NCBI GenBank assembly: GCA_030650425.1
Contig: JAUSED010000005.1
Span: forward strand, 78,932 to 142,931
From: Candidatus Omnitrophota bacterium
GTDB lineage: Bacteria; Omnitrophota; Gorgyraeia; Gygaellales; Profunditerraquicolaceae
Reading direction: 5' to 3'
Length of the DNA stretch: 64,000 nt
In this document: positions 1 to 24,000 of the stretch, piece by piece
How the letters are laid out: every line of letters starts with the position of its first letter
Position numbering within the stretch: position 1 is the first letter of the stretch
The notes under the pieces: generated by a model
Told to the model about the DNA's origin: nothing
What the model saw: only the letters and a program-made list of their open reading frames with translations
The model's database searches: none
Translations under genes and position numbers: made by a program

Positions 1-3000
1 AGGTAAAGGATGATGGCAAAGGGATTAACAAGGAGAAGATTATTAAGCGCGCGGAAGAGTTGGGATTCATCAAAAAAGGCCAAAGGCTTAGCGAGCAGCA
101 AATCCTTAACTTAATATTTCTGCCTGAGGTAAGCGAAGCAAAAGACAGCCGGGAAGGAACGGGAATAGGCTTGGCTACTATTAAGAAGAGCATTGAGGCT
201 GTATGCGGCCAGATAAACGTAAAGAGTAAGACAGGGCAAGGAACCCAATTTAGCTTTAGCCTGCCTTGCGGAGTAGAGCCAGATAAGCTGAAGTCCGGCC
301 TGATAAAATCATTAAAACATAAGCCGTTTGTTATCGAGGTAATCGGAGAAAGAGGGTCTTTTTATAAAGAGGCGGCTCTTTTCTTGACGTGCCTTTTGGG
401 AGCGCGGCCTTTTAACACAGGCTGGCATGCGCGCGCGGCAGTATCTTTATTGTTGAAAGCTATTATGGAAGGCGCGAAGGTAGACAAGAATGATACAAAA
501 GCTGTAGCCGAACTTATGGAAAAATTATTAGAATTAATAGACCGCCTCAGGGAGCCGGTAGTAATCGGCGGCATTGTTACAACCGCTAAGAATGGGAATG
601 CGGTATTGGCTTATCGCGATGAAATTAAATTAGTTACTGACGCCTTAGGCCTCCAGCTTCATAGATTGGTTAATAGCCTGGAAGTGAGCGCGGTAATTGA
701 TGAATTCATAAACAGCGTGGTTAATGGTACTATTGTTTCAGGCCGATACTCAGGCATAATTTTATATACCTCAAAACCGTCTAAACGAAAGGACTCGCTA
801 AAACTCGCGCTCTTGGCTCCTGCGGAAATACGCGCGCAGAGGTTGGGCTGTTCTGTAGAAGATATCAACAAGATAGACAAAAATACAGGTATGGGTGAGG
901 ATTTAAATTATTCCGATGGCATCCTATATATATCAACCGATGATCTTAGCCCGCGTCAGGCCTATCGCAAGGCGCTCGCTATTGTAAGAAAAGAGTTAGT
1001 TAAAGAGTCTTCGCCGCAATCTTCCACCAAACCTCTTTCATCCAGCCCTGCCAGTTCCCCGGTAGAATACGAAAGTAAGCCAGTGGTTTCAGGCGATATT
1101 TCCAGATTGCGCGGTTATTGGTTTATGGAAGCGCCGCGGGAGTATCGAAGGAACGCCCTTCTTTTCGCGGAGAATCACGATGAGCGTCCCGCGCTTGATG
1201 CCTTTAAGAGTATGGAAAAGGCAGAGGCCGCCGCTGTTATTATTCTATCAACAGAGGCGCATATGCTTATCCCGCTTGCCCAAATATACGGGATAAAAAT
1301 GCCTGTTGGCGCGCGCACGGAAATGATGAAATCCCCGGACGCGGGCATTTATCGTTTTAACTATCCACAGCGCCAAGAGGCTGACTTAAAAATAATGTCT
1401 TTCTTTGAACAGGTGCTTCCTATTTTTAGCCAGTCGGTTTTTAGTAAGGGCGATTTATACAGCGCTAAATTAGCTTATCCGGAGGTACATTCTTTAAGAG
1501 GGCTATTTCCGGTGGTGCGCCATTTGCAAGGAGCAGGCGACACAATAGCGGTGATTAATTATTCAGATGGCCGAGAGAAAGTCAGGATAGATTTAGCCAA
1601 AATTTTTGGTTATTATCCCAATCAGGGATTGGCAATTTTAACGCGTCAGCCCAAACTGCGCTATACCAAGAATGTCACTCTTGAATTTAAAGAACCGCGG
1701 ATAGAATTCTCTTTCGGCCCTTACGGCTATGCGATTTTAGGGTTTAGCTCCAGCTCGCCGTTGGAAGAGGAATTCGTATCTCCTACTTCTATGGAGCTTA
1801 ATCCTCACAACTCTTTCTACGGGCAAAAAACGATGATTGATGGCGTGCAGATAGATAAAGTTGTAGCAGCGGGCTTGAATAATTATATACAGGAAAAAGC
1901 ATTAAATACCGCTGACAAAGATAGATTGACTTTTTCTATTGATGGTGAGGCCTTGACGTATGAAATGGTTAAGCTCAAAGAGAGGGTTTTAGCCATAGAC
2001 ACAAGATTAAGCAGTTTGAACATAAAAGAAGCCTTAGCTGATTTATTAATCACAGGCTTAGAGGACGTAGCAGACTTTAATATAGAACAGCTGCCTTTTT
2101 GCTTACATTTTACACTACTTGAGAAATCCCGTTATCTTTTTGAATCTTTACCCGCGCATAATTTCGCAGGTATTAATAGGGGGATACTCGCGTTCACTAA
2201 CCCTCACGCCAGAGATGTTCTTTTGAGGCTGGGATTATGGCATATCTTGCATATTAAGGCAACAACCAAAGGCAGATTGCATGACGGCATTATGAGGCTT
2301 AGGGATGTCGGTGTTGCTAAGAGGTTGATCAAGGAAAGCCGGCTGGGAAGTATCAAAAGATTTATGGCCGCGGTTGAACGAGATGGAGTATTATCGGAGA
2401 ATGCGTTCTTGTTGAATATTCTAAAGGCTTTTTCGACGGAAGAGAAGAGCCCGCAGGATAAAGTGGCTGGTATAAGAGAAAGTATGCGTTGTGATCTCTT
2501 AAATGAACGTCTAAACGCGTTACAAGAAGCAGCTGATAATAATTTAGCAGTTTATCTTGTAGATGATTTATTAGTTTTGCTCCGCGAGAAAGAAGAGCCG
2601 GCCAGGTATAATTTACGCACGCAAGAGGGTAAAGATTGGTATCACGTTAAAATGAATGCTATTTGGCTGTTAGGTAAATTAGAAATATTTCAGGTTGGAA
2701 TAGAAAAAGCTAGGGAGGTCTTGGCCCTTATGCTTGCATTTGGCCTAAGGAGCCCCGCGCCCTGCGTTCATGTCTCAGCTATACTTTCTATTGAATCACT
2801 GGAAAAGAAGGCAAAGGCTTGGCTTAAGCAGGAAGAGGAGAAAGATACATTACTTCCGGGGGCATTACCCGAAGGTGGAGCGGTATCGAGCCCTGTTGAG
2901 GAGGAAGAGATTTTCTTAAGGGAAATTCTGGAAGAGTCTTGTCAAATGGGCTATACGCAGCGGGAGCGCGAGATTTTACAGAGCGCGGCAGAATTTATTT

Positions 3001-6000
3001 CTTCAGAATATCAAGGTAAAAGTTTTAAATCTGGGGAGACGTATTTCCATCATGCCTTGGCCGCGGCCAAGACGCTTTTAGGCTGGAGAGCCGATATAAA
3101 AATCGCCGTGGCGGCGTTTCTGCATAAATTAGACCCTGAATCAAGGAAAAGGCAGGAAGGCCGGCTGAAAATTAAGCATTTAGAAAGAGAAGAGGTTGAT
3201 CAAATTATCGGTATGGTTGAGCGTTTAGAAAACATTGAACAGCGCTGGCCGTATTTGGGCGGGACCATCGTTTACTTGAAAGGCAATAGAAGCGTGCGCC
3301 GTTACCAGAATGCCGTTATGCAATTATGCCGGGATTATGAAACGCTTCTTTTGGTTTACGCGGATAAATTACAAAGCCTGCCCAAGGCCGCGACCTTTAA
3401 GGAAAAAGAGTACCGTTTCCAGGAAATAGTGGATATTTATATGATGCTGCCAGCCCGCTATAACGATTATAGCATGTTTGAAAAACTTAGAAACAAGGCC
3501 TTTGCGATATATGTGCCAGAGGCGGTTTTAGCTATTGAAGGGGATGCCCAAAATAAAGGAATACGCCAAAAGACTTGGGGGCTTTCTTTCCAAGAAATGG
3601 AGCAAAAGCTGAGAGAACTTTCCGGAGAGATCGCTATTTTATTAGAGGCAGGCAACATTCAGGCGGAAATTAAATCGCGCGTAAAGAGCGCATACGGCAT
3701 GTTTGAAAAAATATCCAGCGGAAGAAGGGTAGAATATAATAATTTTGAGGCATTAAAAGATATTTTGGGAACACATATTATATCCGCAAGCGTGGATGTT
3801 ATTTATAATCCCATCATGGTTTGGCTGCGCAAGAAAGGATATAGTTTTAGCGTTGATCAAAAATCAAAATTCAAAAAAGGGTACGAAGCCATTCATATTG
3901 ATGTGGAAATAAACGGTATTGAGCAGGCGAAGGCCCCTCTGCCCTATGAAATCGTTATCTTTAGCCCGGATGATTATAAAAAATATATTTCCGGTAATAG
4001 AAAAGAAAAGTATCTGCCTTTAACTATCCCGCATTACGCTTGGAAATTCGCTGGCTTAGGCGAAAGAGGAGACGAGCAAATTATTGACGCGGATCAATTG
4101 GAATTAAATAGCTTGCCCGCTGAGAATTATCAACAATTGCTTCATTCGTTAAAAAAACTCATTTTTGTTAATTATTTAGAAAAAACACAACGCGGGCTTG
4201 AGGCGCGCTTTATAGAGCTTCCTTACCAAGCCTATCCGGCGGATCTGGCGGCGCATGAGGAGGTGAATAGGTTAGATTCTCAATACAATGGCTTTGTAAC
4301 AATCGCGCTTGAGAAGAGAGGAGAAGAAACCGTTAAAGAAATTTCTCGTCCCCAACCTTTGCAAGAAATCGCTCTTTTAGCAACAGGTATGATTGTCATG
4401 TTGAATCCTCCAGGGGAGGGTTTAGGCAAAGACGTGCTTGGGGTTCTTGAGACTAAAGTGAGCCAACCTCGCACAGTAATGCTTCTGAAGAGGTTGAGAA
4501 ATATGAAAAGTGCAGATTATTGGATTAGGGCGGGAAAGGCGTTAGTGAGCCATAATATAAAAGGCAGAGTTGATAAAGCATATTATGAAAACTTACGTCA
4601 GTTCGCGAGGAGCAAAGGATTTCTGGATATTGCTGAGCTTTTTGAGGCCTTTGGCCGCGGGATCGTTGAAGTTCCATTAGGCAAAAAAGGCGGCTCTTCA
4701 AGCCCCCTGGATTCATCCATTGACCTTGAATTCTTTAAGCATAAATTGCTTCATAGCGAAGGAAGCGTTTCCTTTAAGGGCCTAAATATTTACAGCGAAG
4801 AAGAAATCCGTTATTTTTGGAAGAAGCAAAAGAAATATGGCGGAGTTTTCCAGCAGTTGTCTTTCGCCGCCGATCAGCTAAGCAAGAAAGATAAGATTAA
4901 GGTTCTTTGCGCTGAGGGGGTTTCGCATTTTAAAGACGGCCCTAAATTTTTTACAGCCAGCCGCCTGGCTATTCTTCTGCGCGAGAAAGGCGTTCCTGCG
5001 GAGGCTTTTGACATTTATGTTGTGGATACGGATATGAGCGCGTTGGAACAAGCTGCTTACGGATTTTATGATGCCAGATGGTTCATTGCGCCTAAAGGTG
5101 AAGCGCAAGAGCAGGGTATATTTAAAAAATATTTTGTTGAGTCTAAAAAACCACAGGGGTATCAACTTAAAGAATCTCTACGCTCCCGCATTCATCCGGT
5201 ATATACGCCTTCCCTGATTGAGCTTGAGGAAATTAAAGAAATAGGCCAATTTGATTTGATTACATATTTTTTTAAGGAGTATGTTTTGGAAACAAATCCA
5301 AATGCTCACGGCCAGATCGTAACCAATATTGTAGCCGGACATTTGATCGCGTGCTTAAAGGAAGGCGGTTTTCTCTTAACAACAGCGAATAAATGGTTTG
5401 AAGAATCAAACCTGATGAAACGCCTATCCGTGACTGCGGTTTCCCGTATCCATCGTTCTAATGTGGGCACTTTTAGAACTAAGGTTCTCGCCTATAAGAA
5501 ATTATTCGCAAGCTATAATGATGAATTTTCTAATAAAAAACTCATTCAGCAGTCTAACCAGCTTCGCCATTTAGAAAAAGTTATGGGCCAAAATATCAGC
5601 GTTAAAAGATTCAGGGACGCGTATGAGCTTGCGCGTCAAATCCATCGGGGCAAGAAAAGAGATAACGGAGAACCGTATTTAATGCATCCTATAGCCGTCG
5701 TTGATATTTTTATTGATGTTTTAAAAAGATACCCTCAATATTGGAAGCAATTAGGCTTGGATAGGATTTCTCTGGATGATTCTTATGCCGCTTTGATTGA
5801 CCATGATGTGTTTGAGGAGTATGACTATGATCATGGCCCGTTGAAGAGAAAACAATTAGAGAGCCTGATTAAAATCGAATTAGGGGATGCGGCTTTTGAT
5901 TTTATCATCATATTGACAAATGATAAGGCAAGCGAAGAAGAATATCTTTTGCGCATTATTAGTGATACCCGTTTAATCCTTTCTCTTATGAAGATGGCTG

Positions 6001-9000
6001 ATAAACTGCATAGTTTAAAGACTCCCCGTTATTCCCGCGCTGCTGAGAGGCAGAAAGAGAGCCTTTTACAGGCTATTGATTTTATCCAGAAATCTCGGCT
6101 GCCCAAAGAGGTTCCGGGGATTGTCAAATATTTTATTGATGAAATTTGCCGTTTATATTTACCTGAAATTGTAAAAAGCCGCGAAGAGGGGACGCTTAAA
6201 GGAGGCTTGCCGCAACAATCTTCCCAGCTTGATCCGGAAAAATTTTTTAGCTCACCGGTGGGTCCCGAGGCCGACTGGCGGCGGGCCAATTTCTTACCCG
6301 AGACCTCACTGCTCTTTACTATCTTTTCACCTCAGGAGCAAAAGATGGCTCTTAAAAGATACAGAATCTTAACTCGGAATATGGCAGGGATTATCCCGGA
6401 GCATAACACGCCAGAAGCAGAAGAAACCATCAAGGCAATTTATCTCTACGGAGGGTATCTGTACCATGGTATCCCGACAGACATGGATATTGCGTTTATC
6501 AAATCGGCGAAGATTTCGGTTGAGAAGGACGCAGGGATTTCTATGCTTGCCCAGCGCCTCGCTGACACGGTAAGGTTCCGCGGAAAGGGGTCAGGTTCTG
6601 TTGAAGCGGAGAGGCGGTTGGGTATGACAGTGAATACCCGCCTTTATCTAACGGCAGCGGAATTATGGAATAGCGGCTATCAACTCAGGATGCCGTCTGG
6701 TCGGGAAATCTTTAATTTTGTCAGTCAATTGGTCTGGCCGACAGGGGGGAAGGGAAGTTATCTCGCGCAGGCGATCCTGGCTTTGAACCTATTGGATAAT
6801 ACGGTCTTGACCCGGCTAGGGCTGACTATGGCCGATGTCAGGTTAGTTTACTATGCCAGGGCCTTTTATCTTACTCAGAACCCGCCAATCGATATCCAAC
6901 AGGTTATGGATATCAATAAAAATGTTTGGTCACTGGTTAAAAAGATGAAATGCCAGTTTGCCAGTTCAGTCGTAAATAGAGGGGGTAGAAAGGATGCCTA
7001 TGGTTGTTTAATGCGAACTTTAGTTTCTCAACAACATAAACCTGGCTCCAGTTCACCGGTGGAGGTTTCATCTTCAATCGAAAGCTATGCCGTTGTGACG
7101 GATACTGAAAATAATTCTATAGTTTTTCTTCCCATAGTAAACGGCCCATATATTAGAAACTATCTTGGCACAAAAATAATTAGGGGATTGATTAAAAGTT
7201 TAGACCAATGGATAGGTTTTAAGATAGGCGGCAGGGAAGTACCCACTAATGAAGAAGAGGTTCTGCGTTGCCAGAAGATTTTAACACGATTCGTAATGCG
7301 TCGGTCAATGGGGGAAATTCCCATCGTGTCATTGCGAGCGAACGAAGTGAGCGAAGCAATCTCGACGAGATTGCTTCGTCGCTGCGCTCCTCGCAATGAC
7401 AAATTCCCTGGATCGCCCCCGTTCACTGACGCATTACCACGATTCATCTCCGAGGAAGGGGGAGAGGCAGTTGATTTGTCGACTAAGGGATTTGAAGTAC
7501 ATCTAGTCTTATCTTCGCAAGAAACTTCGAAAAAACCTAAACATCTATCCATAGAGGCATTTTTGGCAGTTAACCAGGAAGGCTATGTTGTGCTTGAGAT
7601 AGCCCCTTGGAATAAAGCAGGCCGTTATTTAGGCTTGGCCCATCAATTAAGGGTTTTCTTTTTTCAAAACATTTTATTGTGGAAATATGACCTTGGGCTT
7701 AAGGCTGTTTATAATATGATATTTACTGTGAGTTATAAGACTATTAACGGGTTAAAAAGAAGCGTATTTTTACCAAAAGACCTGCCAGACTTTATAGCTT
7801 ACGATCTTCCTCCTGTAAATATAGCGGTGATAGAGTCCTACCTTCTATCGTATCTTGTCAAGGAAACAGAGAGGGTGGCAGAGTTAGTGGTGAGAGACGA
7901 TTTAACGAAGAATAAAAAACGTTCTGGCTCGCCTATCGCGGCCTCATCGGTTGAGTCATCCGTTAACGGAACAGAGGAAACGGCAAGCGCGGAACTAAGA
8001 TCTATACTTCATAGCCTCAAGAATAAGTTTCTTTCGCTTGTATATTTTTCTGGCCTTTTGTTGCGTAAGGCTGGCCCCTTAAGAATCGAAGAGGATATAC
8101 CATTATTGAGACTGTTGCGAAATGTCATTTTTCGTCATCCTGAGCGAAGCGAAGGATCTCGTTATCGACGAGATTCTTCGGCCTTCGGCCTCAGAATGAC
8201 GCAAAGTCGGGCATTTCGCAACAGTCCCTTATTGCAAGCAAACAGCCCAATTTCATCCCCAATGGAGTTTCATATCGAATGGGCAGGGGCGCTTGACCAG
8301 AATCCGAAAGGGATTATCAGCGCGGCGGGCGAAAGATTTAAAATCTATTTTAATCTCGTATTTAGCGAATATTTCACCGCAGAAGAAGTACTGGCATTTT
8401 TTCCCGACCGGCTCAAAATAGAGATGAAGCCAAATTTTTACTACAAAGGAATAATCCTAGTGGATAAAATTCAGGTAGTAAATATTTATTCACCTGCCGG
8501 GGAATGGGCAAGGACTAACGACAGAGAGCAGCCAATCTATCCGGAGACCAAAAGCAAGGCCTTTAGGTTAGAGGTGCCATTTTATACCCATGATTCTTTA
8601 ATATTTGATAACGATATACACTGGGAAAAAAGGGAACTTTTGCTTTTTTCTCTGCTGATTAAATTTAAGCATCAGGGAGAAGAGAAGGTTATTGAACTTG
8701 AAGGGTATGGAAAAAGCGGGGCCGGCATAGTTGGCCTCCATTTACCTGCTGTAGGTTATTTTAGCGAAAGACTTAAGCAAAGGCTAGAGAATCTATACAG
8801 CGATTATTTAGGAGGCATTGAAAAAGATAACGCGATAACTCTCTTAGTGTATTATACGGAGGTATTAAAGATAGAATATGCTAAAGAATTACTGCTAAGG
8901 ATTGCCAAGGATAGCAACCATTTAATCAGAAAGGATTTGGCTGTAAGCTTAAGGCAGCTGTTAGCGCATGATATTCACGCAGAGATTTTAAATGAATTAA

Positions 9001-12000
9001 TCAATGACGCCGACAGAGAAGTCAGGGAAGAGGCGCTAGTTACCTATTGTGTATATGCTTTGCGCGGTAAATTTTCTAGTGATTTACAAGATCTAAATAA
9101 CTTACCAATGCGTATCTTTTTTTATGCGAAGAGCCTTTTTGTAAAAGAGGGAGAGAGAAAAGAATTAGTAACGATATTAAAACAACCAACAGATACCGTA
9201 AGCTTTCTTGCTGGTTTTTCCGGAGAAGACTTGCGCGGAGGAATTTACAGTAAGGAGCAAGCAGAAGGCTATATTCGTTTATTTAGAGAAGCGGTTGTTT
9301 CTGAAGTAAAGGGATTTTTAAGCACAATAGAAGCAAGAGTAAGAAGGGTAAGCCTTGATGGAAGCAAGGTTGAAGAGGATAAGAAAACAATTATCAGCCT
9401 GATATCGGAAATGAGACGGGAATTAGAAAGGCGGCAGGCTGGCAGCCCGATTTTCGTAGTTCGAGGCCTATCTTTGCGGCAGTATAACCCCGGTTTCAGA
9501 TTGCTGTATTTATCTGGGCATATTTCCAGTTCGCCGATAACCTCCAGAAGCAACAACATAGCAGGAGCGCCTTTTTCTAAGTCATTTTTACAATGGCTAA
9601 GTGACTCAGGTATAGGATTAAGGAGTCCTCCGTCCAAGCTGCTTGCGGCTTTTGTCTTCCTTGCATATCTAGCCGCATCTATTTTCTCGCCAATAGTAAG
9701 CAGAGCAGATTCAGTTCAAACGCCCTCAGGTGGAAAGGCGCCTCAGGAAATTCCGCAGGAAAAACCAAAGCAAGAAGGACAGGCGTCCTTGAAAGCTCCG
9801 GCAAAGGCCGCTAATGATTTAGCGCAAGTAAAATTAAGCGAGGCAATAACTGCTCTCAAGAATAAAAAGAGGCCAGAGGCCGAAGGATTCCTTAATTCTG
9901 CGAAAGAATATTTGTTCGAGGTTAAAGCCGGTAAAATTGTGGCTAAAATTGAAGATCATAAAACTTTGGTAGAATTTGCGGAGCTCTCAGAGCGCCTTCG
10001 CAGGTTCGATGATGCTATTTTGGCTTATAACGCGGCCGCGGGAGTTGTTGAAAAAAAGGATCCGGATTTAGCAGAATATTACAGGTCAATAGCTTCGTCT
10101 CTCGAACCGTTTAAAAAAGGAGAAACGTCCCGTCAGCCGCCTGCGCCTCTATCTCCTGAAGCTTCTAAGAAAGCGGTAACGTTAAGCCCGGAGGAGCAGG
10201 AAAAGCTAAAAAAGACCACCAGGGCCGCATTAGATAAAATCGAAAGATCTTTAGGGACACCTAAAGGTATCCCGATAACGGATGAGCAAAGAAAGGCGGC
10301 GAAGAAGAGTCTTGATGAGGCAAAGGAAAAGTTAGATAAATCACGGATAACTGACTTTGATCTTTATGCTGAAATCGGCAGAATATATAATTTATTAGAC
10401 TTCTATAAAGAGGCAGGAGAAGCAAACGCGAAAGCGCGGGAATCCGTCGCATCAGACGCAGAGAAAGGATTTATTAAAGACCAGATTCAGAAGAACGAGA
10501 TGGACGAGATGAACGCGCCAATAAAGCGCCCCGGCAGCTCGCCGTTAGGCAGTTCCAGCTCAAAAACCTCAAGCCCTATGGAAGATTATGGAAGATTTTT
10601 GGCTTTGGCGGAAGAAATTAGCAAAGTGATTAAAGCTGCACAGGCCGCCATCTTTGATAAGAATAGAGAACAAGGAGTTTTTGAGCTTTATGCGCAAATA
10701 GAGCACGCCGCGAACTTATTTGAAAGTTTTAAACGAATCTTTCATTCTTTTAGAATCACACCTGAGCTTAAAGAGCATTATACGGAGATAATAGTTGCTT
10801 TAGCAATGAATTTCCCGTCGCGAATTGAGCCAGAGTCAAATCTTATCCGAGGAATGGATACAGGCCTTACCGCAGCTGCCGAAAAAGAATTGAGGGCTAT
10901 TTTATCATATAAAGAGGCTAAGCAGGTACTATGGCAAAAACTGCAGCCGTATATTATAGGTTTAGATGAAATTCCTGAGCCTAAACTCAGCTTAGGCCTG
11001 CCCATGGTGATTAAATCGTTTCATAACCTTGATGAAATAAGATATCTCCAGGAAATGGCTGGTAATTTCGAGCTTCAATTCTGTGTGGTTTCGCCTAAAA
11101 GGACGCCTTATCCTTTACTTATTTTTTCAAAAGAGCTTGGGGGTTGGGCTGAAATAAGGTTTGTGCCTTTTGCCTCTGCGGTGGCCCATACCCAAGCTTA
11201 CTTGATTCCTTTGGAAGCAAGTCAAGAAGACGAAAGAAAGGCAGGATTAGTCAACAGAGTTTATCGAATTCCTTTCCTTGTTTTAGGTTTTGGTTCCGGA
11301 AAAGATACTCATTTGGAAATCTCCTGGTTTACAAAAAATGCGCCTTGGTTTCATTACGAGCGGGAAAATCAGGAAGAAATAGTCCGGTTTTTACGCAAGG
11401 TTAATTTCCTGGAGACATCTTCTCCCCTTATTGATAATACCGGTGAGGAATGGACAGATAGAGAACTGGAAATCTGGCGATTGTGGGCAAAAGGCGTAGA
11501 TCGGGAAGCTATAGGCAAGGCATTAAATGAAGGTGAACGTTTTATAAAAAGGGTCATTTCAAAGATTATAACAAAATTTAATATTTCAAAAAGAGGTCAA
11601 ATAGCGCACTTTATCTCTATTAAGGAGGCAAAAAAGTACGGCATAGATTTAGGTATTAGCTTAAAGGAGGCCTTAGATCAGGATTATCTTGCGGCAATTA
11701 AGCTTTATCTGAAAAATGAGCCTCCAATGGATATTGACAAAAAATTCAACAAAAAAGATTCGTGGTTTTTAAAGGCGGTCTTTCCTGTTATGCTTATTTT
11801 AACCAATATGGATATGGAACCTTTAGATGATAAATTCTCTGATAGTTTCCGCCAACGGATTACGGATGTTTTAATTGAGCAAGGAATTTTGGAAAAAGGA
11901 TTTACGATTAAGCCTAAGGAAGTTTTGAGTGAACGGGAGAAAAAGATTTTGTGGTTGTTTATAGCCGGTTACAATCCAAAAGCCATTGCTTTGACGCTTT

Positions 12001-15000
12001 CTCTACCCGAAGGCATCCTTCTTTCAGACATCCTCTTTGCTATGAAGCAAAAACTAAGGGTGCCTATAGATCAGCCTTATTATGCTTTGCCTAATCCCGG
12101 AGTTTTAGCCTTAGTTAAGAAAGCCATAGAGTTGAATGAATTACCGCAGTATATAAATTTAGATGATTTAACTTCCAGAGTTAAGCGAAATTCCTTGGCT
12201 CCAAGTGAGTTAAAATTGCTGCAGAAAATTTTGGAAGGTAAAAAAATGAAACAAATACCGCCAAGCGAGTTAGGTTTAAATTCTAGAAATGGAACAGAAG
12301 AAGCCCGCTACTATTTAAAGAATAAAATGGGGCTAAAAGGCTTAAGGCTCAGTAGTTTGGAGATGCGCTGGGAAGCTATGCGTCAGGGGTATTTCTTGAG
12401 GACAGAGTGGTTGGTTTTAACCAAAGAAGGCAGGATCCTTCATCAACCTTGGCCATTAGAGGACACCTTAGTCCTGGTTGTAAAAGCGAGAACCAGATCC
12501 GGGAAACCCGCAGGTTTTTATGTTTTTTATCCAGATGCCTCTCTAAGTCAAAGAAAAAATTTATTCATTAATATCAAACCCTATTCTCGCCAATTTTCCG
12601 AAGAATTTAAAGAGTCTCTTAAGGGAGCCGCGCAATATGTTAAGTCTCAAAGGGGTTCCCTGAAGAAAAGCAAGAATATGAAAACCAAGGCCTATAATCA
12701 GTCTCATGTCTACTTAGCCGGCTATTTTTATCCCAAATACCTGAAAGAAGGGTTTTTTGCTATAGAAGCCTTTAGCCTGACGTTTAAAGAAATTAATTAT
12801 TTTGGCCCGGTAAAAGCCTCTTACCTGAGATTTATTTTAGAGAATTTAGGCTATGACTGTGCCTTCTTAAATGTTATTTTTGAAACCAAAGAATATTATC
12901 AAAAGATAAATTTGGATATTCCGGAATTTTTTAGAGATGGCGAAGCAGCGGGTTTTAAAGGGCTAAAGGCTTTCGAATATTGTTTAGAAGCGATAAAGGA
13001 ACGCGATCGGAAAAGAGAGGTTAACCCGTATATAATTGAAGGGCTTCTTTCACACAGCGGTTTTCGAGTTGGGTATTACGGGACATTATTTACAATTTAT
13101 AAATTTTGGAATAAGCACGGAGTAGATGTTATTGAAGAGTATCAATATGATGCTTATGATCCTTCTGAATTCAAACGCCTCCTTCGCCTCCTGCCGTTTG
13201 AGCTCCCTTCATTAAAACAGCGACAGGATAGAGCTTATTATCTTGAACGTATATTGAAAGAGGCTGGCAGCATTGAGGATGTCATCTATTTGCGGGTTGC
13301 CAATGGAGTAAACGGCGATGAAGAATTTGGAGTTATAGATATACCTCATGAAGCCTCTCAGGAAAAAGCAGTATTTTTAAACGAGATAGCTGAAAAATTA
13401 GGCTCTAAAGCTCACATATTATTGCAAGCAAGGGATTTATTTGGTAGCGAAGAACTTTCTCCCGAAGAAGAAAGAGAGCGTGATTCCTTGATTGAACAGA
13501 TTCAACAATTAGCGGGTATTGATAAGAAAGAGACGAGTGAAAATGATACAAATGGCGCAATTACAAGAAAGACAGATGAGCAAATTGGGATGAAAACATC
13601 AGTATGGACTGAAATTTCCAGCTCGCCGGTGGAAGAGGAAGATGCAAGGCAGCGCGCGGTTCAAGTTACAAAGAGCCTTATTAATGACTTAAACAAAGAT
13701 ATCCTAGAAAAAAATAAAGTCACGAGAGAATCTGTTAGAGTGCAATTTGCCGATAAAACAAAAGACGAGAAAATCGAGCTCAATTTCGGTACAAAATTGT
13801 TAAATTTTGTTTCATTAATGGAGATAGTGAATATTTCCCCAGCTATCAAGGCAAAGGCTTTGATCAATATAGCTAGTAAAGACAGGAAATTCATGTTGAT
13901 TTTTTATGCTCATCTGAGGGTTTATTTCTATGATAGTTATGAAGAGAAATGGTCTTCGGTTGAATTAAACGCGAACAGGCAAAAATTTGGCCCCGAAGCG
14001 CTGTTGAAGGATGAGGCGGTAAAAAGTTTTATAAATAATGTCCTTAGAGAGCGTTTTGCTCAATTAAAGAACTTCAGAAAAATTATTAAAACATATCCTC
14101 TTCAGGATTATAGCTTAAACGGAGGCATAAAGATCAGCCTTGATAATACGATCTTTGACCTTCCCAATAGCAAAGAGACAGGGCTTGGCAGAATTGTGAG
14201 AGAGAAAATAGGGATAGTCAGGGATAAAGGGGCGCGGGGGACGATATTTACCGCCTTGGTTGAAAAGGATTCGTTTGAAAAATCCGTTCCGCGCTATCTT
14301 TTATTTTTGTCCCTTGTCGACACAGTTGAGCTTTATAACCAAGGCGGGCTTATTACTGTATACCCCAAAGACGGAAAGTATTACGGCTATAGCGATGACA
14401 TCTACATCAATACCTTTCTTTTTTATATTGTTTCTAAACAAGAGCCGGCATGGAAGCGTGTAGTTCTGAAAAGAGGGTCGAACAAAATAGTTATCGGAAG
14501 CGATGCTGATGGCGGTTTCATAACACCGCCTAATTCCAATATGCGCTTAGATTCATTGGAATTCCATAAATACGGCCCAACGTATGTGGATGTTAAGAAG
14601 CTGATGGATAGTAAAGGCAATTTTATCGCAGGATTTGCCGGCGTCGGTAAAGGCCAATATTTGGTTAACGGCATAGGATGGCCTTTGAAAGATAAGAAAT
14701 CTCCTGTAATTATTTTTGAGGGCAAATTTTACCTTACTACTGTGGTTAGATGGTTATTGCAAAAGTATGGAGAAATTCCGGTTGCAGAGCCCTTGGAAAA
14801 AGCCATTAAAGCGATACCGTTAAGGATGCTCCAGACTAAAAATACCTTCTATAGATTAGAAAAGACGGCAGCTAAACGTACGGTTTATGATATGGAAACA
14901 GATCGATGGTTGAAGAAAGATGTCTGGAAGGTTTTTCCATATGATCAAGAAGACGAAGGCTTGGGGACATATACACTTAATGAAATTGTTAGTATTCTCG

Positions 15001-18000
15001 TAGAGAATATAAGCAAGTCTAATCCCAAGCATAATCATCTCTTAGATTTACGTCCAGCTATTCTAAGATACCTTCCTTGTGTCAAGGATCAAAAACGGCT
15101 CGAAGCAATCAAAGCTAATCTTAAGTTAGGCATTGGTGAAGTAAAGCAAGAATTAACTGAAGATGAGCTCATGCGAAAATGGATAGGAACCGCTATCCGT
15201 CGTTTAACCGAAGAAAGAGAAATAACCCCGGTTTCTTCTTTTAAATTACATGCCTTATTGGGGATTGAATATCGAGTGGCTACAAAAGCTGCCCGGCGTG
15301 AAATAGAATACTTAGAAGAGATCGGTTATCTCATTAGAAAGAAGGAAGGGAGCAATGAGTATGAGCTAAATAACACCCATTTAATTTTAATTGTAAAATC
15401 GTCGGTCAATTCATCGCCGTTAGCCGAAGGAGTGTCCCTTTGGGGAGCGTCCCCAATTAGAGTGATGGCCGCGGGCATTGCCCTTATCACCTATCTCCAC
15501 CTTGTATTATTTACTCCTGTTTTTGCCGCGGAGCAAGCTTTAAAAGCTCAGCCTCTAACGATTGCTAACCCGGTAGTCTCGCTCCAAAAAGCTATAACGG
15601 AGAAAACAATACAGCAAACAGGACTCGATCAATTAAAAGTAAAGAAGGCCGCTGATGAGATAAATAAGTATATTGAGGAGCATATTAGGAAGCATAAAAA
15701 AATAGATGAGAAAGAAATTAGCTGGATATTAGGAAAGATGGGAGTTAGTTTCGCGATTATTGATAAGATTATTGCTAATAAGGAGATAAAAGAGATTAAA
15801 ATTCTTCCCAAGTCTCCGGGGGAAGAGATAATAACCATAAAAGTGCCCCCTGTTTTGCTTCCCCAACAAACGTATATCGAGCCTGCCAAGCAAACGCCTC
15901 GTGAAGCAAAGGTAAAAAAACCAACGCCGAAACCAGCAGTTTCTATTAAGGGGGAAGCCGCCATAGCTACCATTCCGCCCGGCACAAAACTTTCGTTGGA
16001 TGACAAGAAAATCACGATTAACCACCTCGTAACTTTGACCAGAGGGCCCGCCGGTATAATAATTACCATAGAAATTCCTCAGTGGGATAAAAATAAGCCT
16101 AGCCGCAGTAAGCTACTGAGTACTTTCAGCGGCGCGATGTTTACCTTATTGCCATTTTTAGGTATCGAGACGAGCCAGACGAATATCGATACTTTTGTGA
16201 AGGTGGTAGCAAGCTGGAACGGAAAAGATAATCCTAATAAACTAAGCCCAAGAGAAAAAATTTCCTATCCTATCGGAGAAGAAAGGGCGGCTGATTTACT
16301 TAAGGCCTTAAAGCCTGCCGCGCAAAGAGAAAAAATAATTGAACCTCCGGTTAAACAGGAAGAACCTAAAGAACCTTCGCAGGAGCAGCCTGCGTTAGAA
16401 AAAGAAGAGCAGATACTGCCGGCTGATGAGGTTAAGCAGCTTTTGGATGGGTTGACAAACGACAAGAACAGGGAAAACAAAGAGAAGATTAAAGAGCTGG
16501 TTACAAAAGTGGAGCGGCTTAGCAAAGAAAGCAGGTTTGCGGATGTTCCCCCCGAACTCGTGCAGAACCTTTGGATTGTGGTTGGTAATTATTATCAAAA
16601 CATAGGAGACGCAGAGAACGCTATTCGTGCTTATAAGGAAGCTGTTGAAGTTGGTAAGAAATTAGCCAAGCCATCTACCGGTCCCTATTCTCTTTTGGCA
16701 CAGCTCTATAAATCCCAAGGCCAGAGCTACCTTAAAGAGGAGCTGGAAGCCCTAATTTCATATATTGAACTGGCGAAGAGGCAAGGCATAGCAACGCCTA
16801 CCGAGGAAAAAAGGCGTAAGGAAATAGAAGATCTGCTGCACGGACAAAAAGTTCAGGCTGACGCAGAGCAAATTATGCAATTGCTGACAGGGGCTTCTCA
16901 GGATGTTGAAAGAAGAGATAAGCCGGCTGCTTTGGATAAAGTTAATCAGGCCATAGGAATTATAAAAACAAACAATATGGTTTTCCCCGGCGCATGGCAG
17001 CTTGCCGGGGAGATTTATTATAAGTTAGGCGATCTTAATCAAGCCCGGGATGCTTTCGCAATCTCCGGAGAAACGCCCGAGGCAAAATATGGTTTGTTTT
17101 TGATCGGGTTCAAGCAAGGCAAATTAGACGAGGCCCTGCCTACTTTGGGAGCCGCGATTGAAATGGCTTCAGGAGATAATAAAGACGCCTATCAAAAAGC
17201 ATTGTATGCTGCCGCGGAAGAATTAGAGAAAAGCGGTAAGCCTGAGGCGAAAAAATATTTCGAACAGATTATTACTTTGGATTCCGGAAGAGCGGGAGAT
17301 GCGCAGGTTAGATTAGGGGATATTTATTATCAACAAGGAGATTTTAAGCAGGCCGCTAAGTTTTATGCGGATGCCTTAAAGAGCGATTCTAGCGATGCCC
17401 GAAACACAGCCAAGAGCCAGCTTGCGCGGATTAGCTATAGGAATTTTATGAGGAGTACTCTTCCTATGCTTTTTGTTGGTTTGGTTTTATTCATTATCGC
17501 AGGAATCTCTGCGGGTAGAAAATTCAAAAATAAATTCAAACAAACATTAGAAAAAAGAGGGATACCTGTTAGCCAAGAGGACTTGGAAGATGAAAAATTC
17601 CAGTTAGAGCAAATAATAGCCAAGCCTGAAGCCCAATGGGTCCGTAAAGCCCTGTTTCCTTGGGGAATGATCACCAGCATAAAAAATTCTTTGAGGAGAG
17701 AGAGGATTAGGGAATTAAATAAATATAGATTTGCGCGTGACGCCGGTTGCGGGGAAGAGGAGGTAAAGAGATTCGAGAGATTGATGGTTGTTTACCGGGT
17801 TACAGGAGAAAAAGGATGGGCAAAGATAATCCCCTATCGCGTTATAGGCTTTATAGGAGGCCTGTCTTATGCCGGAAAAGTGATCTTGCCTCCCGGAAAT
17901 CAGCCAGCCGCGAAAATAGTTCAACTTTATCTTGAGATTGAAGGAGTAGGGATAATATGCAGGCCCGCGACCGACTTTTATGTCGATGAGGCTAAGGCAA

Positions 18001-21000
18001 TTGAAGAACTTAAAAGAAGGCAAAACGCATCCGCGATTAAGCCTAGTTTCAGCTCGCCGGTGATACCGCCAGATCGAGGGACACAATGCTTAATTCCGGA
18101 GGAATCCTCTTCTCCAGCTATATTGCCGCCTCTAGCTCCGCAAGAGCCTCTTGTTTATAGCTTTCAAGGCAGAATAGCGTCAAAGACAGAAGCAAATAGG
18201 GCTACGATAATTCGTGATATGACGATCAATGGTGTTTTCGGATTTAAGCTGATTATAGAGGAATATCAACGCGCCAAAAAATATGATCTGCATATCAATG
18301 ATTCCGACAGTTACCCTATTGGCTGGGTAGAATGGGAGTTTAGAGATGAAGTGCCTTATATTATTTTCATCAAGAGAAGGTTTAGCTATAAAGGTAAAGG
18401 ATTATCAGAATTGTTGATGAGGATAACGTTAAAACATATAGAAAAAATTTATGGCCAAAGAGTAGAAGATACAATAGTTGATTCATTTGTTATTTTTTCT
18501 GAATCTAGCATTGCGCGTATAACCGGATTATTACAGCGCCTATGGTTTAGGGCAGCCAAGGAAGATAAAGAAGCGATAAAGTTCCTGAAGTATCTAAAAG
18601 GCCTCCCAGACCCTTTCAGAGTATCTTCAAGTTCTCCTCTGCCCGGAATTCCCGTAACTTCTTCTCCCACAATTTATTCCGAAGATAATCTAAATAATCT
18701 AAGGACACAATCCTTAATTTCAAGTTTTGGAATTAAGTATTGTGTCCCTGGAATTCCTGGAATTCGGGACAATTTAGAAGACAGAATAATCATATATGAT
18801 GTTAACGGAAGAACAAAGATTATGAAAAAAGATATTAGGGCTAGCATAGTTGACATAGATCAGTTGCACCTTACTTCGTCTCAGAATAGATTGAGCGGAG
18901 GCAGATTTGTTGGTTGCACAGCTTGCCTTTTCTGGGATAACAATGCAGGTATCCATGGGTTTCTACATTTATTTCCTGTTCTTACGGCTGCCGAAGATTC
19001 GATCAAAGGCATTATTCCCGCAATAATCAATAATTTTAAGTTTTGGGGAGGGGAAATAAATGATATTGGTTCAGCGCTTATTCTCGCGCAATGTTCACAA
19101 AAAAATATTGCCCAAGTTTTGTTAGAGCAATTAGGAAGAAATACGAAAGTGGTTTTCGAAAATTTAACTGCCGATCCATTCGCAATAAGAAAACAGGAAT
19201 ATATTAATCGTATTAGCATCGAAAGAAATTTATTCTCTATAGACTTGCCTAAAATTCCTAAGCCTTTAATCTTTTCTATGGTTGACAATAAAAATCAATT
19301 CGTTAGTTCGCCTGTTGCTTATATGCCCATATCATCCCGAGGCGCGAGAAGGCACGCGAGATTTTGGCTGTTAATTAGTGTCGCGGAAATGGCGGGATTG
19401 ATGGTTGTGGGTATTTTAAGCCTGAGGGCCATCGGCACAATCGCCTTAATTACTTTGAGCGTATCAGCTATGCTCTATCTTCAGGCAGGTATTTTAAAGA
19501 AATGGGAAGAAATCATTCTGTCTAATCCTATAAGGGCCGGGCCCTTGAAAAAAGTTGCTTATTTCTACCGCTGGTTAGATCGCGTTGAAATTAATCCTGT
19601 CATTCTTGACCAGCAAAAAGGGCTGAAGTTATACTTTTTGTTCCTTCCTCATGAAGTATTCCATAAACTGAATTTAAAGGTCATTAAAACCTTCCGATCA
19701 ATCTTTCCGAGTTACGGGAAGAAGCTATCCGACTCTAAAACTATAGACGCCTTAGATGAATTTGGCGCTTATTTATTAGGCGCCTTTATTCCCGTGATGA
19801 TTTTAACCTTGCCGTTTACCACCTGTATTATCCATGAATCGTATATAAGAAGGGCAGCGCGCACAAATCGTATGCTTGAGGCGCTAAGGGCATTTGACAG
19901 AAAATACGAACAATTGGGCATAGAAGAACTTAATGAGGAAGAGTTTGGAGAATTAGAGCGGGGTATCATTGAAGAGGTTTTAGATGCAAATGTTGATATG
20001 TATTTATGGAATGAGAATGAACCGGTAAATAGCCAGAAAGGCATTGATCTAGACGAAGAGGCGTGGCTGCGCGGTAGTATAGAGCAATATTTTAGCGTCA
20101 ATGATCCTGCCGCAAGGCAGACGATCTTAAATCTTCTTTTAGCAGAAGAGTCAGAATATGAAAGGAAAGGCGGGTTAGGCTGGCGTTGGTTATTTAAATA
20201 TGATTCTTTAGGGAAGCCGGTAGGATTGCTGGGCCTGCATATATTCGATAGAAATAAGCTTCCTCAAGGGGTTATTGCCGGCAGCCTGATTCAGGAAGAG
20301 TCACTATATGGAAAGGGTTATGTAAACGAGATATTGTTCTGGATAACGGATAAGGGAGACAACGGCTTAAGTATATTTAAGATTACAAATTGGCTTAAAA
20401 ATAAGGAAAAGAGGCATCCCAACTACATTATGGATGGGGATACTAATTATTTACTCTTCGCGTTGTCTGAAATTATGCACCGCATAGATGACAAACGGCG
20501 TATTCTTAGGGAGAAGAGCGAATTAAGAGAAGCGGGGATAAAAGATTTGTTAACCGGCGCTTATAACAGAAGGTATTTAGATGAAAGTTTACCCAAGTGG
20601 ATAAGCGAAGCAGAAAAATTTAAGTATTTTTTCAGCCTGTTAATGCTGGACATAGATTTTTTTAAGGGCGTTAATGATACCTACGGCCATCCCGCGGGGG
20701 ATGCCATCTTAAAAGGCATAAGCGAGGAAATTCAACGCACTATGCGAACGGATATATTCAGGCCTTCTGATGTTTCGTTCCGTTACGGAGGGGAGGAGTT
20801 TTGTGTTATTGCAACATCTAATCTTGAAGGGGCAAAGAAGCTGGCTGAAAATATAAGAAAAAATGTAGAAGGGCTTTCTTTTGTGCTGCCGGGAGTTAAA
20901 AAGCCTGTCAAAGTTACGGTAAGCATTGGGGTAACTGAATATAGGCCGGGTGATGATACCCTGGGCGCTTTGATAAAAAGGGCAGACCAGGCCCTATATA

Positions 21001-24000
21001 AAGCAAAAGAAAATGGCAGAAACAGGGTAGAGGCCTTCGCGGCCTCTTTAGTTAGTTCGCCTATTGAAGGCTCGCGCGCGGATTTTTATCGCCCTAAGGC
21101 GGACAATCATTTGCCTTCTATCCCCAAGGAGAGGGAAGAGGCAATTAGGGGAGAGTTAAAGGGAAATCAGCCGATAACTAATATTCAAAGGCAATTTGTT
21201 ATTGATGTATTGAATGAGGCTCAAGGTTTAGCGAGAGAAGACGTAGAAATTGTACGTTCATTGCGGGGAATAGCTTCTATAGAAATACGCGCAGGGCCTA
21301 TGCCTAACCTTTACGGAGCTATTTATGATAATATCTTATATTTAGACACACTATTTTTCCAATCCCGCCAACGAATAGATTTTCTTCTTACCTTAATTTA
21401 TCTAGCCGGAGCCAGGCTTGGCAGAAAACGCAGGCATAATGAAGCATTTGCCAAGAAATACGCGGCAAATATTCCCAATAATAACCAAACTATAGTTAGC
21501 AGGCCGGAGTTATTCTTAAAACCCGAAGAAGTAATCGTATATTTTAAGCGCGAAGGAGAGAACATTGATAAAATCCAAAAGAACTCTATCTGGCTGCAGT
21601 TACCGGATGAATTTAAGGATTTTACAGTATTGACCCCGGCTCAAGCCCTAACTGAAGGGCTTATTATATTAACGAATAATCCGCACCTAAAGGAGCGCCT
21701 GCAAAATAATATAATATCGCAGCCAGAACGCTATAGAGTGTCAATAGAAGGAAAAGTCAGCGAGGAGGATTTACGTTCTATGTTATCAGGCCGGTATGTA
21801 AAAGCGGCAAGAGGAGAGAATAGCGGAGCTAATAATACTGTGCATATGTGGAAGGTAAAGCCGGATAGCCTAGAGGTAAAAGAACGAAATAAGGATAACA
21901 CAATTTTGGAGATTTATTTTTCCAGAAGAGGGGAACGGGAGATTTTGGTATTATTCAAGAATTTCGGTTATTCAGTGAAAAACATAACCCGGACACAAAT
22001 AGGCCTAATTAGCCCGCAGGATTTGAAACCCGGCAGTTATCGCAGGCTAAAATGGAATGAAATACCGGCCATAGCCGGGCTTTATTTCAAAGATACTTTG
22101 TATGAGCGAAACTTAGCGGTAAAAGAGCAAAAATATGCCCTTGAAGAAACGCAGGATTATGAGGTTATCGACTTCTTATTGAATGATAAAAATGTGATAA
22201 GTGATGTTTTCCAGAATATTTTTATGAGGTTTGATTTGGCCGCCGATAACGGAGAGAGAGAAGATCTTTATTACATCAGGGAGGGGGGGTTTAAAAGAGT
22301 TTACAAAATAGTCTTAAGGTCGAAAAATAACATAGAAAGATTCGCGTTTTTCGTTAAGGTTGTTAAGGCTGATGTTGAAATGACCGATTCTGGTTATCGT
22401 TATGACGCGGAGTATGCTAAAAGGCTTGTTGAGACCGCGCGCTTAGCGCGGCCATTAGCGCGGCAGAAGGAGCTTGATTCCTATCCTCCCGTAGGCGGTT
22501 ATTATTGCGTAAAGGGTAAAAACGGAGAAACAAGGATTATTTTTACAGAGGGCATTATCCCCGCGGCAAACGCGCATTTAACCCCGGATAAGAGAAACCA
22601 GATACTGATCAGGACGTATCTTTTATACTATTATATTTTTGGGAAACAAATATTTTTTGCGGATTCTAAACCGGAGAATGTTATTATCCATCATAAATCC
22701 CAGATAGGATATAGAGGCACGCTTATCGATATGGATAATATTATCTTTAGCGAAATATCCCCAGCCCATCTTGTCCATAACCTGCTTTTATACGGTTTCA
22801 AAGCAAGCGACATTATAGAAGCCTTGATTAAATTCTTGGGCAATCAAGAAGCCCACGATTTCTTAAGGTCAATTATGTTTTTAGCCGCGCAGCCGCACAG
22901 CCAGATTATGATTCCTATAGTAGAAGCGTTTAAAGGTTATAGAGATAGAGGGATATTCCAAAAGGAGGTCAGCGGAAGTTTTAAGATTAAGCAGCCTATA
23001 AAAATAGCTATCAATGATAAAGAAGTGTTAGTACCGGAACGGACAACCCTTCTTGAGATTTTAAATGATTGCTACGTGGATATTAATACGATGGATGTTG
23101 AATTAAATGGAAATCTGCTATCGCTGGGCCCCGGGGCCTTATTGACAAGCGAAAAAAGGTCAAAATATAAAAATACTATTCTAATGAGTAACGACAAAAT
23201 AAAATTCTACAGGGAATCAAGAGTTCACAAGGCTATGCCTAATGAGGTTCCTAAATTTTACACCCCTGCTTTAAAAATAAAATTAAAGCTGCTTAAGGAA
23301 ATGGGGTTTGATGGGCAATTAAAGGCCATGTCAAAAGAATTAATTAAGTTTAATTCCGCGGTTATAGATAAGGCCGTTGTAACGCCGGAGGTTAAGTCTT
23401 TTAGGCTCGTCAGCGGTTCATTATTAAATAACTTTATGAGGTATCTCAAAAAACACAGAAACCATCCTTTTGAAGGCTTTAAGCCGGATATAATGCTGAA
23501 GAGGTTTGACGATATAGATTTTGAAAGGCCGCAAGAAAGAGACAAAATGAGGCCGGTGCTTCAAAAATTACTGGCAGGCTTAAAGGATTCAAATAATACA
23601 TTTGATAGGATTTTTAAAATGTCAGCCGAGGAAGCGCGCGGCAGCAGCCCGGCCATCCAGGGCTCAAAACAACAGGTTAAGATTAAGAAGACAAAAGAAT
23701 TTGAGGAAATTTTGAAAGGAATTGTTTCAAGCCCGATTGCTAAAGAAGAGTATTTAGCTGTAGTGGTTGAGAGGGGATTTTTTGTGCCGGAAGGAATAGA
23801 AATGATAGAAAAAAGCCTTGATAAAGGCATATTGCACCCCGGAACGAAGGTGAGTCCGCAAGATTTCGCTGAATTTATGGAAAATTTTCATCTTAATTCA
23901 GGATTAACCGCGGGCTTGAATAAAATCTCTCGGCTAGCCTATTGGCCAATAAGCGAGAGTAAAAAGATATTTTATTTACCCAAAGAGTTATGGATGCGGA

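Follow-up and report, generated by a model that had tools for sequence, protein, structure and literature searches.

What kind of element lies at positions 8108-8228 of the stretch analysed here, and how has it come to be read through by the giant gene that contains it? The stretch, hereafter referred to as the window, comprises 64,000 bp (64 kb) of contig JAUSED010000005.1 of a Candidatus Omnitrophota bacterium. The most probable answer, to which we assign a probability of roughly 0.8, is that 8108-8228 is a non-autonomous DNA transposon, in which a shell of terminal inverted repeats (TIRs) like those of the IS1182 family surrounds a doublet of units similar to CGTC-tagged repetitive extragenic palindromes (REPs), and that it is read through in the giant gene. 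An earlier note on this DNA, made without database searches, had described the locus as resembling a MITE, short for miniature inverted-repeat transposable element. That description is borne out by the TIRs, by the target duplication and by the many copies found in unrelated contexts: the element is a real MITE, mobile in unrelated contexts.

Structure of the element

The outer inverted repeat, previously given as perfect over 14 bp, is perfect over 15 bp (8110-8124 and 8212-8226) and reaches 17 bp with one mismatch (the two TIRs of Table 1). Among perfect inverted repeats whose arms lie no more than 250 bp apart, none in the whole window is longer. The window contains no further good match to it, and the 121-bp element is single-copy there. 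The hexamer TTATTG is found at 8103-8108 and again at 8229-8234, at the offset of 126 noted earlier. Comparison with 31 other copies refines this direct repeat to a 5-bp target duplication, TTATT, with G8108 as the first base of the TIR, and sets the boundaries of the element proper at 8108-8228. The footprint of the insertion is 121 + 5 = 126 bp, or 42 codons.

The + frame that starts at nt 3 is open over the entire window (21,332 codons and no stops; the remaining + frames contain 1,702 and 2,021). Translation of this frame confirms the 42-codon read-through proposed earlier, as it crosses the element without a stop: ...EEDIPLL RLLRNVIFRHPERSEGSRYRRDSSAFGLRMTQSRAFRNSPLL QANSP.... The predicted insert residues are RLLRN...AFRNSPLL (including AFRNSPLLQANSPISSPMEFHIEWAGALDQNPK). 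Without the insert, the junction would read IEEDIPLLQANSPISSPMEF / IEEDIPLLQANSPISSPMEFHIEWAGALDQNPK and the predicted empty-site DNA sequence is GAAGAGGATATACCATTATTGCAAGCAAACAGCCC.

A segment of 131 nt folds into a single long hairpin, with an energy of -70 kcal/mol as RNA (z = -10.7) and -41 kcal/mol as DNA (z = -9.2) that none of 200 shuffles matched. Several other identities were considered for this segment. A chance palindrome is ruled out by the z-scores of the fold and by the family copies. An intein or intron was rejected because the element is too short and has no match, and an intrinsic terminator because no T-run follows the hairpin. A scan for promoters and terminators found nothing within the element, and an Rfam search of 6500-9000 gave only a chance-level match (sR45, E = 0.81).

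Copies in other genomes and metagenomes

Copies were sought in three ways. Ten loci, among them L034, came from scanning the genomes of species representatives for the paired outer repeat, and scanning metagenomes for the TIR together with the inner unit gave 34. A protein-level search with both translated faces of the element gave five short, probably spurious open reading frames (ORFs) that led to three further DNA copies. The source contig was not among the loci returned by the genome-contig and metagenome-contig scans, and neither the paired TIR nor the single 17-mer TIR was found in the scans of IMG/VR. Counting that of the window, there are 32 unique TIR-bounded copies. The 31 others are all in unrelated flanks: one is in a Candidatus Omnitrophota metagenome-assembled genome (MAG) and the remainder are in metagenome contigs (approximately 35 contigs).

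The copy of L034 aligns with the window element without gaps, with 89% identity over 119 of the 121 bp. This identity is confined to the span between the GGGACTG...CAGTCCC TIR ends; the flanks are unrelated and the duplication is ATAAT instead of TTATT. A clear AT-rich 5-bp duplication, either perfect or matching at 4 of 5 positions, lies directly outside the TIRs in approximately 20 of the first 29 unique copies. Examples include TTATT, ATAAT, ATTTA, CGTAA, AATAG, CTATT, ATGAT, ATTAT, CATTG, TCTAT, TATCT, ATTAG, CATTA and ATTAC.

The copies are 121-229 bp in length, consist almost wholly of hairpin and carry no transposase gene. Their skeleton is constant: TIR, spacer, a GTCAT...ATC unit, spacer, a GAT...ATGAC unit, spacer, TIR. 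In the variants of 133 to 229 bp, extra small hairpins are nested within the loops of the units. Approximately 22 of the first 29 copies are located outside long ORFs, either between ORFs or at their ends. Three loci (L049, L052 and L054) carry two or three family copies of differing length classes within 1-2 kb, and those of L049 and L054 are in spacers beside ORFs resembling type II secretion or pseudopilin genes.

Origin of the terminal inverted repeats

An element of 2.05 kb with a 619-aa transposase is present at 2846-4903 of L038, a locus from a Chloroflexia MAG (CAWHRD010000004). The transposase matches the NCBIfam IS1182 model (E = 1e-63) and the Pfam families DUF772, DDE_Tnp_1_6 and DDE_Tnp_1. 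The ends of this insertion sequence (IS), GGGCTGTTGCGAAATGG / CCATTTCGCAACAGCCC, are equivalent to the window TIR minus one A, with a match at 16 of 17 positions. The core CTGTTGCGAAATG also terminates MITE-like palindromes in genomes of Actinomycetota, Betaproteobacteria and Chloroflexia. Our best inference from these sequence matches is that an IS1182-type DDE transposase would mobilise the window family in trans.

Two minor observations concern the same termini. A MITE of approximately 119 bp adjacent to the L038 element (2701-2819) shares the end GGGCTGTTGCGAAATG with the IS1182-family IS, and palindromes with the same core were seen in Quadrisphaera granulorum (three copies), Herbaspirillum and Azoarcus.

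Inner hairpin units

The 27-nt sequence of unit A, GTCATYCTGAGCGAAGCGAAGRATCTC, occurs exactly in 28 viral contigs of IMG/VR (L001-L028) of widely differing GC content. The units there are mostly solo and sometimes form inverted pairs, and 12 of the 30 occurrences are in frames that stay open for 150 nt or more in each direction. The unit has the same place and similar flanks in L001 and L014, which differ by a compensating change in the stem (ATTCT/AGAAT in one, ATCCT/AGGAT in the other). The stem covaries, a third version being the ATTGC/GCAAT of element 1, a second hairpin element 0.7 kb upstream in the window (Table 1). It closes on GA-GCGAAGC-GA, that is, a GC clamp, a GAA triloop and two G.A pairs. 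The heptamer d(GCGAAGC) is known as an exceptionally stable DNA mini-hairpin.

The window carries the tag CGTC (8133-8136) and, as its complement, GACG (8198-8201); among the other copies the tag is CGTC, TGTC or AGTC. The stem begins AT...AT and reaches nine stacked positions only with the two G.A mismatches included. GAA forms a 3-nt loop, which becomes 11 nt by Watson-Crick pairs alone, and the tail is CTC. Neither end of the units contains GTAG, the mark of GTAG REPs and of REPINs (REP doublets forming hairpins). A full-text literature search for the hairpin sequence returned nothing relevant.

These units also occur as a doublet lacking the outer shell. The MtaB homologue P0007 (L077, 2094-2168), which is 63% identical to the MtaB protein of L066, carries in frame a bare 75-nt GTCATTGCGAG...CTCGCAATGAC doublet. 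This doublet has neither outer TIR nor duplication and is located at the same loop as the family insert of L066. A bare doublet can move by itself, and the doublet of the window family was probably once independently mobile. One alternative goes further and takes the inner GTCAT...ATGAC doublet to be the mobile unit itself, similar to a REP dimer or REPIN and moved as single-stranded DNA by a tyrosine (HUH) transposase, so that the outer palindrome is only its preferred target or a passenger. The bare doublet in a second Omnitrophota MtaB and the solo 27-nt units scattered over the IMG/VR contigs would both fit such a scheme, as would Halothiobacillus neapolitanus, in which CGTC REP dimers are always within an outer palindrome, GGGaaGCTT-GAAAaACC...GGTaTTTCgAAGC-gCCC (PMC3733652). 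However, identity between copies is bounded exactly by the outer TIRs, and the 5-bp duplications flank the TIRs and not the doublet. The unit that moved is therefore the whole 121 bp, and we consider it improbable that the doublet moved alone into the window site.

Apart from its doublet, L077 has a solo unit at 1507-1550, just upstream of the likely true start codon, that is annotated as coding.

Copies within other genes

The element lengthens the radical-SAM core encoded by L066, an Omnitrophota MtaB gene, by 47 residues and splits the Pfam Radical_SAM match into two stretches. The MiaB structure 7mjv of the PDB aligns on either side of this insert with approximately 44 fewer residues between the aligned parts. 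The insert is found in none of 11 aligned homologues, several of which bear the name Omnitrophica or Omnitrophota in the source record; this comparison of filled and empty sites is at the protein level only. One of the 11 has, at that loop, the unrelated bare doublet of L077. Similarly, L065 has an in-frame copy within the CHASE2 domain of a CHASE2-SpoIIE protein, and the copy of L051 is in frame in a 676-aa ORF that has no Pfam match. Together with the window copy, these cases indicate that in-frame residence recurs in the lineage.

The remaining clearly intragenic copy is that of L034 (918-1038; Candidatus Omnitrophota MAG JAZDOX010000125). It is located in a Peptidase_C25 gene that continues in the same frame on both sides, and it contains an in-frame TGA. 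In a protein-level comparison, one Peptidase_C25 Pfam stretch crosses the repaired junction. Possible readings of this gene are a pseudogene of fresh origin, a polymorphism or a case of recoding. Stop-free copies therefore make up four of the five clearly intragenic ones (window, L051, L065 and L066, but not L034), compared with an expected 1/3 (binomial p of approximately 0.045). This is modest evidence that stop-bearing insertions have been removed from genes.

As a separate observation, another hairpin doublet, of a different kind, lies upstream of the family copy in the L051 ORF (approximately 420-500) and is likewise read through, translated as ...SLRGAEGDEANTKNEIASAPTAHRNDK....

Codon-multiple footprints and open frames

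Length plus 5 is divisible by 3 in 30 of the 32 unique copies. The 3n+1 lengths seen are 121 (13 copies), 133, 142 (three architectures), 145, 157, 166, 175, 181, 193, 205 (two architectures) and 229 bp. The exceptions measure 134 and 192 bp, and the 192-bp copy is the 193-bp type minus 1 nt. The arms measure 27, 31, 33, 38 and 41 nt, several of which are not multiples of 3; the totals are nonetheless 3n+1. In L045, a length of 121 bp is kept through indels of +1, -1, +2 and -2 that cancel one another.

The copies are also unusually open to translation. Stop-free reading modes number 53 of 174, compared with 19.1 +/- 4.0 (maximum 31) in 1,000 shuffles. When the copies are oriented alike, most of them, over 12 or more length classes, have the same two modes, one per strand, free of stops. 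Even the 181-229-nt variants keep these shared modes, while shuffles predict just 0.2-0.4 open modes per element. The forward mode (offset 1: G/GGA CTG TTG CGA AAT, read as GLLRN...AFRNSP) is the one used in the window, and the reverse mode (offset 0: GGG ACT GTT GCG AAA TG, read as GTVAKC...ISQQS) is used in L051, L065 and L066.

These counts bear on the explanation offered in the earlier note, namely that both window insertions are in frame and stop-free because purifying selection retained them out of insertions that could have had any length. Over 64 kb the host frame is unbroken, an insertion that broke it would have been lost, and the 4/5 stop-free intragenic copies point in the same direction. 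The argument from footprint length nevertheless fails, because 30 of 32 footprints are multiples of 3 nearly regardless of location, which is the outcome that the note itself had named as refuting. A multiple-of-3 bias is indeed present when footprints are tabulated over the copies, but it extends to intergenic copies and so does not reflect site selection. As most copies are intergenic, the in-frame state is a trait inherited from the family and is not evidence on the window insertion, for which the prior of being in frame is approximately 0.9 and not 1/3. Only the absence of stops can reflect selection at the site. The window copy has one open phase of three per orientation, so its stop-free state has a prior of approximately 1/3, and that half of the argument is informative about the window insertion yet weak. 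We therefore regard selection among arbitrary-length insertions as rather unlikely to explain both insertions.

The multiple of 3 might instead be a mechanical by-product of construction from nested hairpin modules of 12, 24 and 36 nt, with 121 + 5 being 3n by good fortune and with no selection for translatability. The large gap runs between nearest relatives (12, 24, 36, 36 and 48 nt) are what such growth would leave; a basic hairpin unit of 27 nt and, in the core, a repeat of the hexamer GCGAAG would agree with it too. Arms that are not multiples of 3, yet sum to 3n+1, are harder to reconcile with a modular cause. So are the four compensating small indels by which L045 holds its length and the fact that the same single frame per strand is stop-free even in the longest variants. 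On balance a mechanical origin is somewhat unlikely, although it is the most serious competitor. Selection on the element lineage for translatability, of the sort proposed for the palindromic elements of Rickettsia, may lie behind both the 3n rule and the open frames, and we put this at close to, or slightly under, an even chance.

Alternatively, the ribosome might not translate the insert. It could take off at TTA TTG, bypass the hairpin and land on the identical TTA TTG, in which case internal stops would be irrelevant. Such behaviour would resemble that of T4 gene 60 and of the yeast mitochondrial "byp" elements. The identical codons on either side of a very stable hairpin would suit bypassing, and the L034 copy has an in-frame TGA in a C25 peptidase gene that is otherwise intact and in the same frame. 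On the other hand, bypassing would make 3n footprints and open frames needless, and both are strongly kept. The take-off codon is not directly followed by a stop, and L034 is possibly a mere pseudogene. To our knowledge, a gap of 126 nt is far longer than those of known bypass sites. We consider bypassing very improbable.

Proposed history of the window insertion

Based on these comparisons, the following course of events is proposed for the transposon reading. A DDE transposase acting in trans would have cut and pasted the element into ...CCA TTA TT/G CAA..., duplicating TTATT. As the family unit is 3n+1 and the duplication adds 5 bp, each insertion would add whole codons, and the window copy would have landed in the sole stop-free phase of its orientation. 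The ribosome would then read the insert as 42 extra residues and leave the gene intact; judging from the frame, the insert is presumably translated. The most likely cause of the codon-multiple footprint and of the one open frame on each strand is lineage selection, in that frame-breaking variants could not persist at genic sites of coding-dense genomes.

Several points weigh against this account. First, the Omnitrophota-type contigs scanned yielded no autonomous partner bearing the exact TIR, and the link to IS1182 consists of one element from a distant phylum, with a transposase that scores 215.9 bits against a curated cut-off of 270. Second, a hairpin of -70 kcal/mol in the mRNA would be a considerable obstacle to translation. 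Third, the length steps between nearest relatives are often 12, 24, 36 or 48 nt, which might account for the 3n rule mechanically, and the copies share ancestry, so that the counts are not independent and overstate their independence. Fourth, the window copy has no empty-site allele or homologue (0 among 5.8 billion proteins and none in the window). What speaks for insertion at this exact locus is therefore the TIRs, the duplication and the comparison with the family.

Relationship to known palindromic repeats

The closest parallel in behaviour is with the Rickettsia palindromic elements (RPEs) of Ogata et al. (2000, 2002), as outlined in PMC10969869. RPEs are there given as dispersed palindromic repeats of approximately 100-150 bp that occur in frame inside unrelated genes, where a conserved open frame adds a peptide, and as non-coding copies too; the window family is alike in each of these respects. 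The likeness is one of architecture and behaviour, and the hosts are of Omnitrophota type, a different phylum from Rickettsia. Unlike RPEs, the family described here has 17-bp TIRs and a 5-bp duplication, which point to a DDE transposase. It is also open on both strands, its lengths grow by nested hairpins and its host gene exceeds 64 kb. By analogy, the window element may work like an RPE; membership is not claimed.

The inner units invite comparison with the CGTC-tagged REPs of Di Nocera, De Gregorio and Rocco (2013; PMC3733652), part of which were equated with RPE-4 and RPE-6 of Rickettsia conorii. Common to both are a CGTC or TGTC start, stems beginning A-T, T-A, inverted dimers and a location inside genes. 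In addition, the outer palindrome of H. neapolitanus resembles the GGGACTGTTGCGAAATG...CATTTCGCAACAGTCCC of this family. The two differ in the loop, which in the window units is a GAA triloop set on a GC clamp and tandem G.A pairs and in CGTC REPs measures 4-5 nt, and in the tail, which is CTC here and CCA there. Furthermore, the outer palindrome is regarded as a target in that paper, whereas here it behaves as the TIR of a mobile unit. Because the loop and tail depart from the rules of CGTC REPs, we do not assign the inner units to that group.

Like bacterial MITEs that derive from insertion sequences of the IS1182 and IS5 type, the family is short, bounded by TIRs, flanked by a duplication and devoid of a transposase gene, and its TIR is near-identical to that of an IS1182-family IS. 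Unlike them, it has a hairpin doublet in its interior in place of a deleted transposase gene, and the cognate IS was not found in the same lineage. A further parallel may be the very small nested dispersed repeats of cyanobacteria, which Elhai et al. are said to have described in 2008: palindromic units that reportedly nest in each other and in genes and leave the frame intact. Those repeats differ from the present family in sequence and host and lack an outer TIR shell.

Taken with the open frames, these comparisons allow a broader proposal, which we advance tentatively and at somewhat less than even odds. The window element would belong to a MITE family that lineage selection has made safe to translate and that, along with bare doublets, colonises Omnitrophota-type coding sequence including giant genes, so that the strategy seen in Rickettsia would have evolved independently a second time. 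Mobile palindromic DNA that lives in genes has mainly been viewed as a peculiarity of Rickettsia, and here it is found in an unrelated, free-living and uncultivated lineage, with a clearer signature of transposition (TIRs and a 5-bp duplication). The codon-multiple rule is quantitatively testable and has implications both for the adaptation of selfish DNA to coding-dense genomes and for the tolerance of giant genes above 60 kb to insertions. For annotation, the strings ...HPERSEGS..., ...LRMT..., ...FAQND... and ...VAKC...ISQQS in Omnitrophota-type proteins should be taken as hairpin elements and not as domains.

Other features of the window

Table 1. Coordinates of the 121-bp element and its parts, of element 1 and of the host frame in the window.
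Feature	Position	Strand	Remarks
Host open reading frame	3..63998	+	part of giant gene running off both window ends
Element 1	7293..7437	+	145 bp, 22-nt imperfect inverted termini GTAATGCGTCGGTCAATGGGGG
Left target-site duplication TTATT	8103..8107	.	family-wide 5-bp AT-rich duplications
Left TIR GAGACTGTTGCGAAATG, family consensus GGGACTGTTGCGAAATG	8108..8124	+	16/17 positions identical to end of IS1182-family IS in L038
Spacer TCATTTTTC	8125..8133	+	last base, C8133, completes CGTC tag ahead of unit A
Hairpin unit A, 27 nt, GTCATCCTGAGCGAAGCGAAGGATCTC	8134..8160	+	stem ATCCT/AGGAT around GA-GCGAAGC-GA
Central spacer GTTATCGAC	8161..8169	+	tip of long hairpin (fold)
Hairpin unit B, inverted, 31 nt; + strand reads GAGATTCTTCGGCCTTCGGCCTCAGAATGAC	8170..8200	-	
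Spacer GCAAAGTCGGG	8201..8211	+	
Right TIR CATTTCGCAACAGTCCC	8212..8228	-	
Right target-site duplication TTATT	8229..8233	.	

Element 1 has an inner GTCATTGCGAG...CTCGCAATGAC doublet at 7328-7400 and is flanked by an 8-bp direct repeat, CACGATTC, at 7285-7292 and 7438-7445, which gives a footprint of 153 bp, or 51 codons. Neither the 72 loci collected by that point nor IMG/VR contained its termini. The two elements had previously been taken as likely members of one family. The inner hairpin is indeed of the same type in both, but their termini and the lengths of their flanking repeats differ; what elements 1 and 2 (8108-8228) have in common is a module and not membership of one transposable family.

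Judging from the titles and abstracts of the literature, genes as long as the host gene are known mainly from Omnitrophota; the two preprints on Omnitrophota giant genes make no mention of MITEs or palindromes. The window has no second + strand ORF of at least 150 aa. In the first 10,000 codons of the giant frame, the Pfam domains HATPase_c, HD_4, GerE, TPR and GGDEF score above the curated cut-off, and RelA_SpoT and CheR match only below it. None of the Pfam domains is close to the 121-bp element, which corresponds approximately to residues 2702-2742 of the window translation. A search of 5.8 billion proteins with residues 2001-3333 (nt 6003-10001) gave zero homologues, and no paralogue of the element region was found elsewhere within the window. 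An AlphaFold2 prediction made without an alignment for nt 7743-8741 was uninformative (mean predicted local distance difference test score, pLDDT, of 34.8). Downstream in the same giant frame, at 14251-14347, is another inverted repeat of 17 nt (88%), which lacks a GTCAT-type unit and has the arms CCGCCTTGGTTGAAAAG / CTTTATAACCAAGGCGG 63 nt apart.

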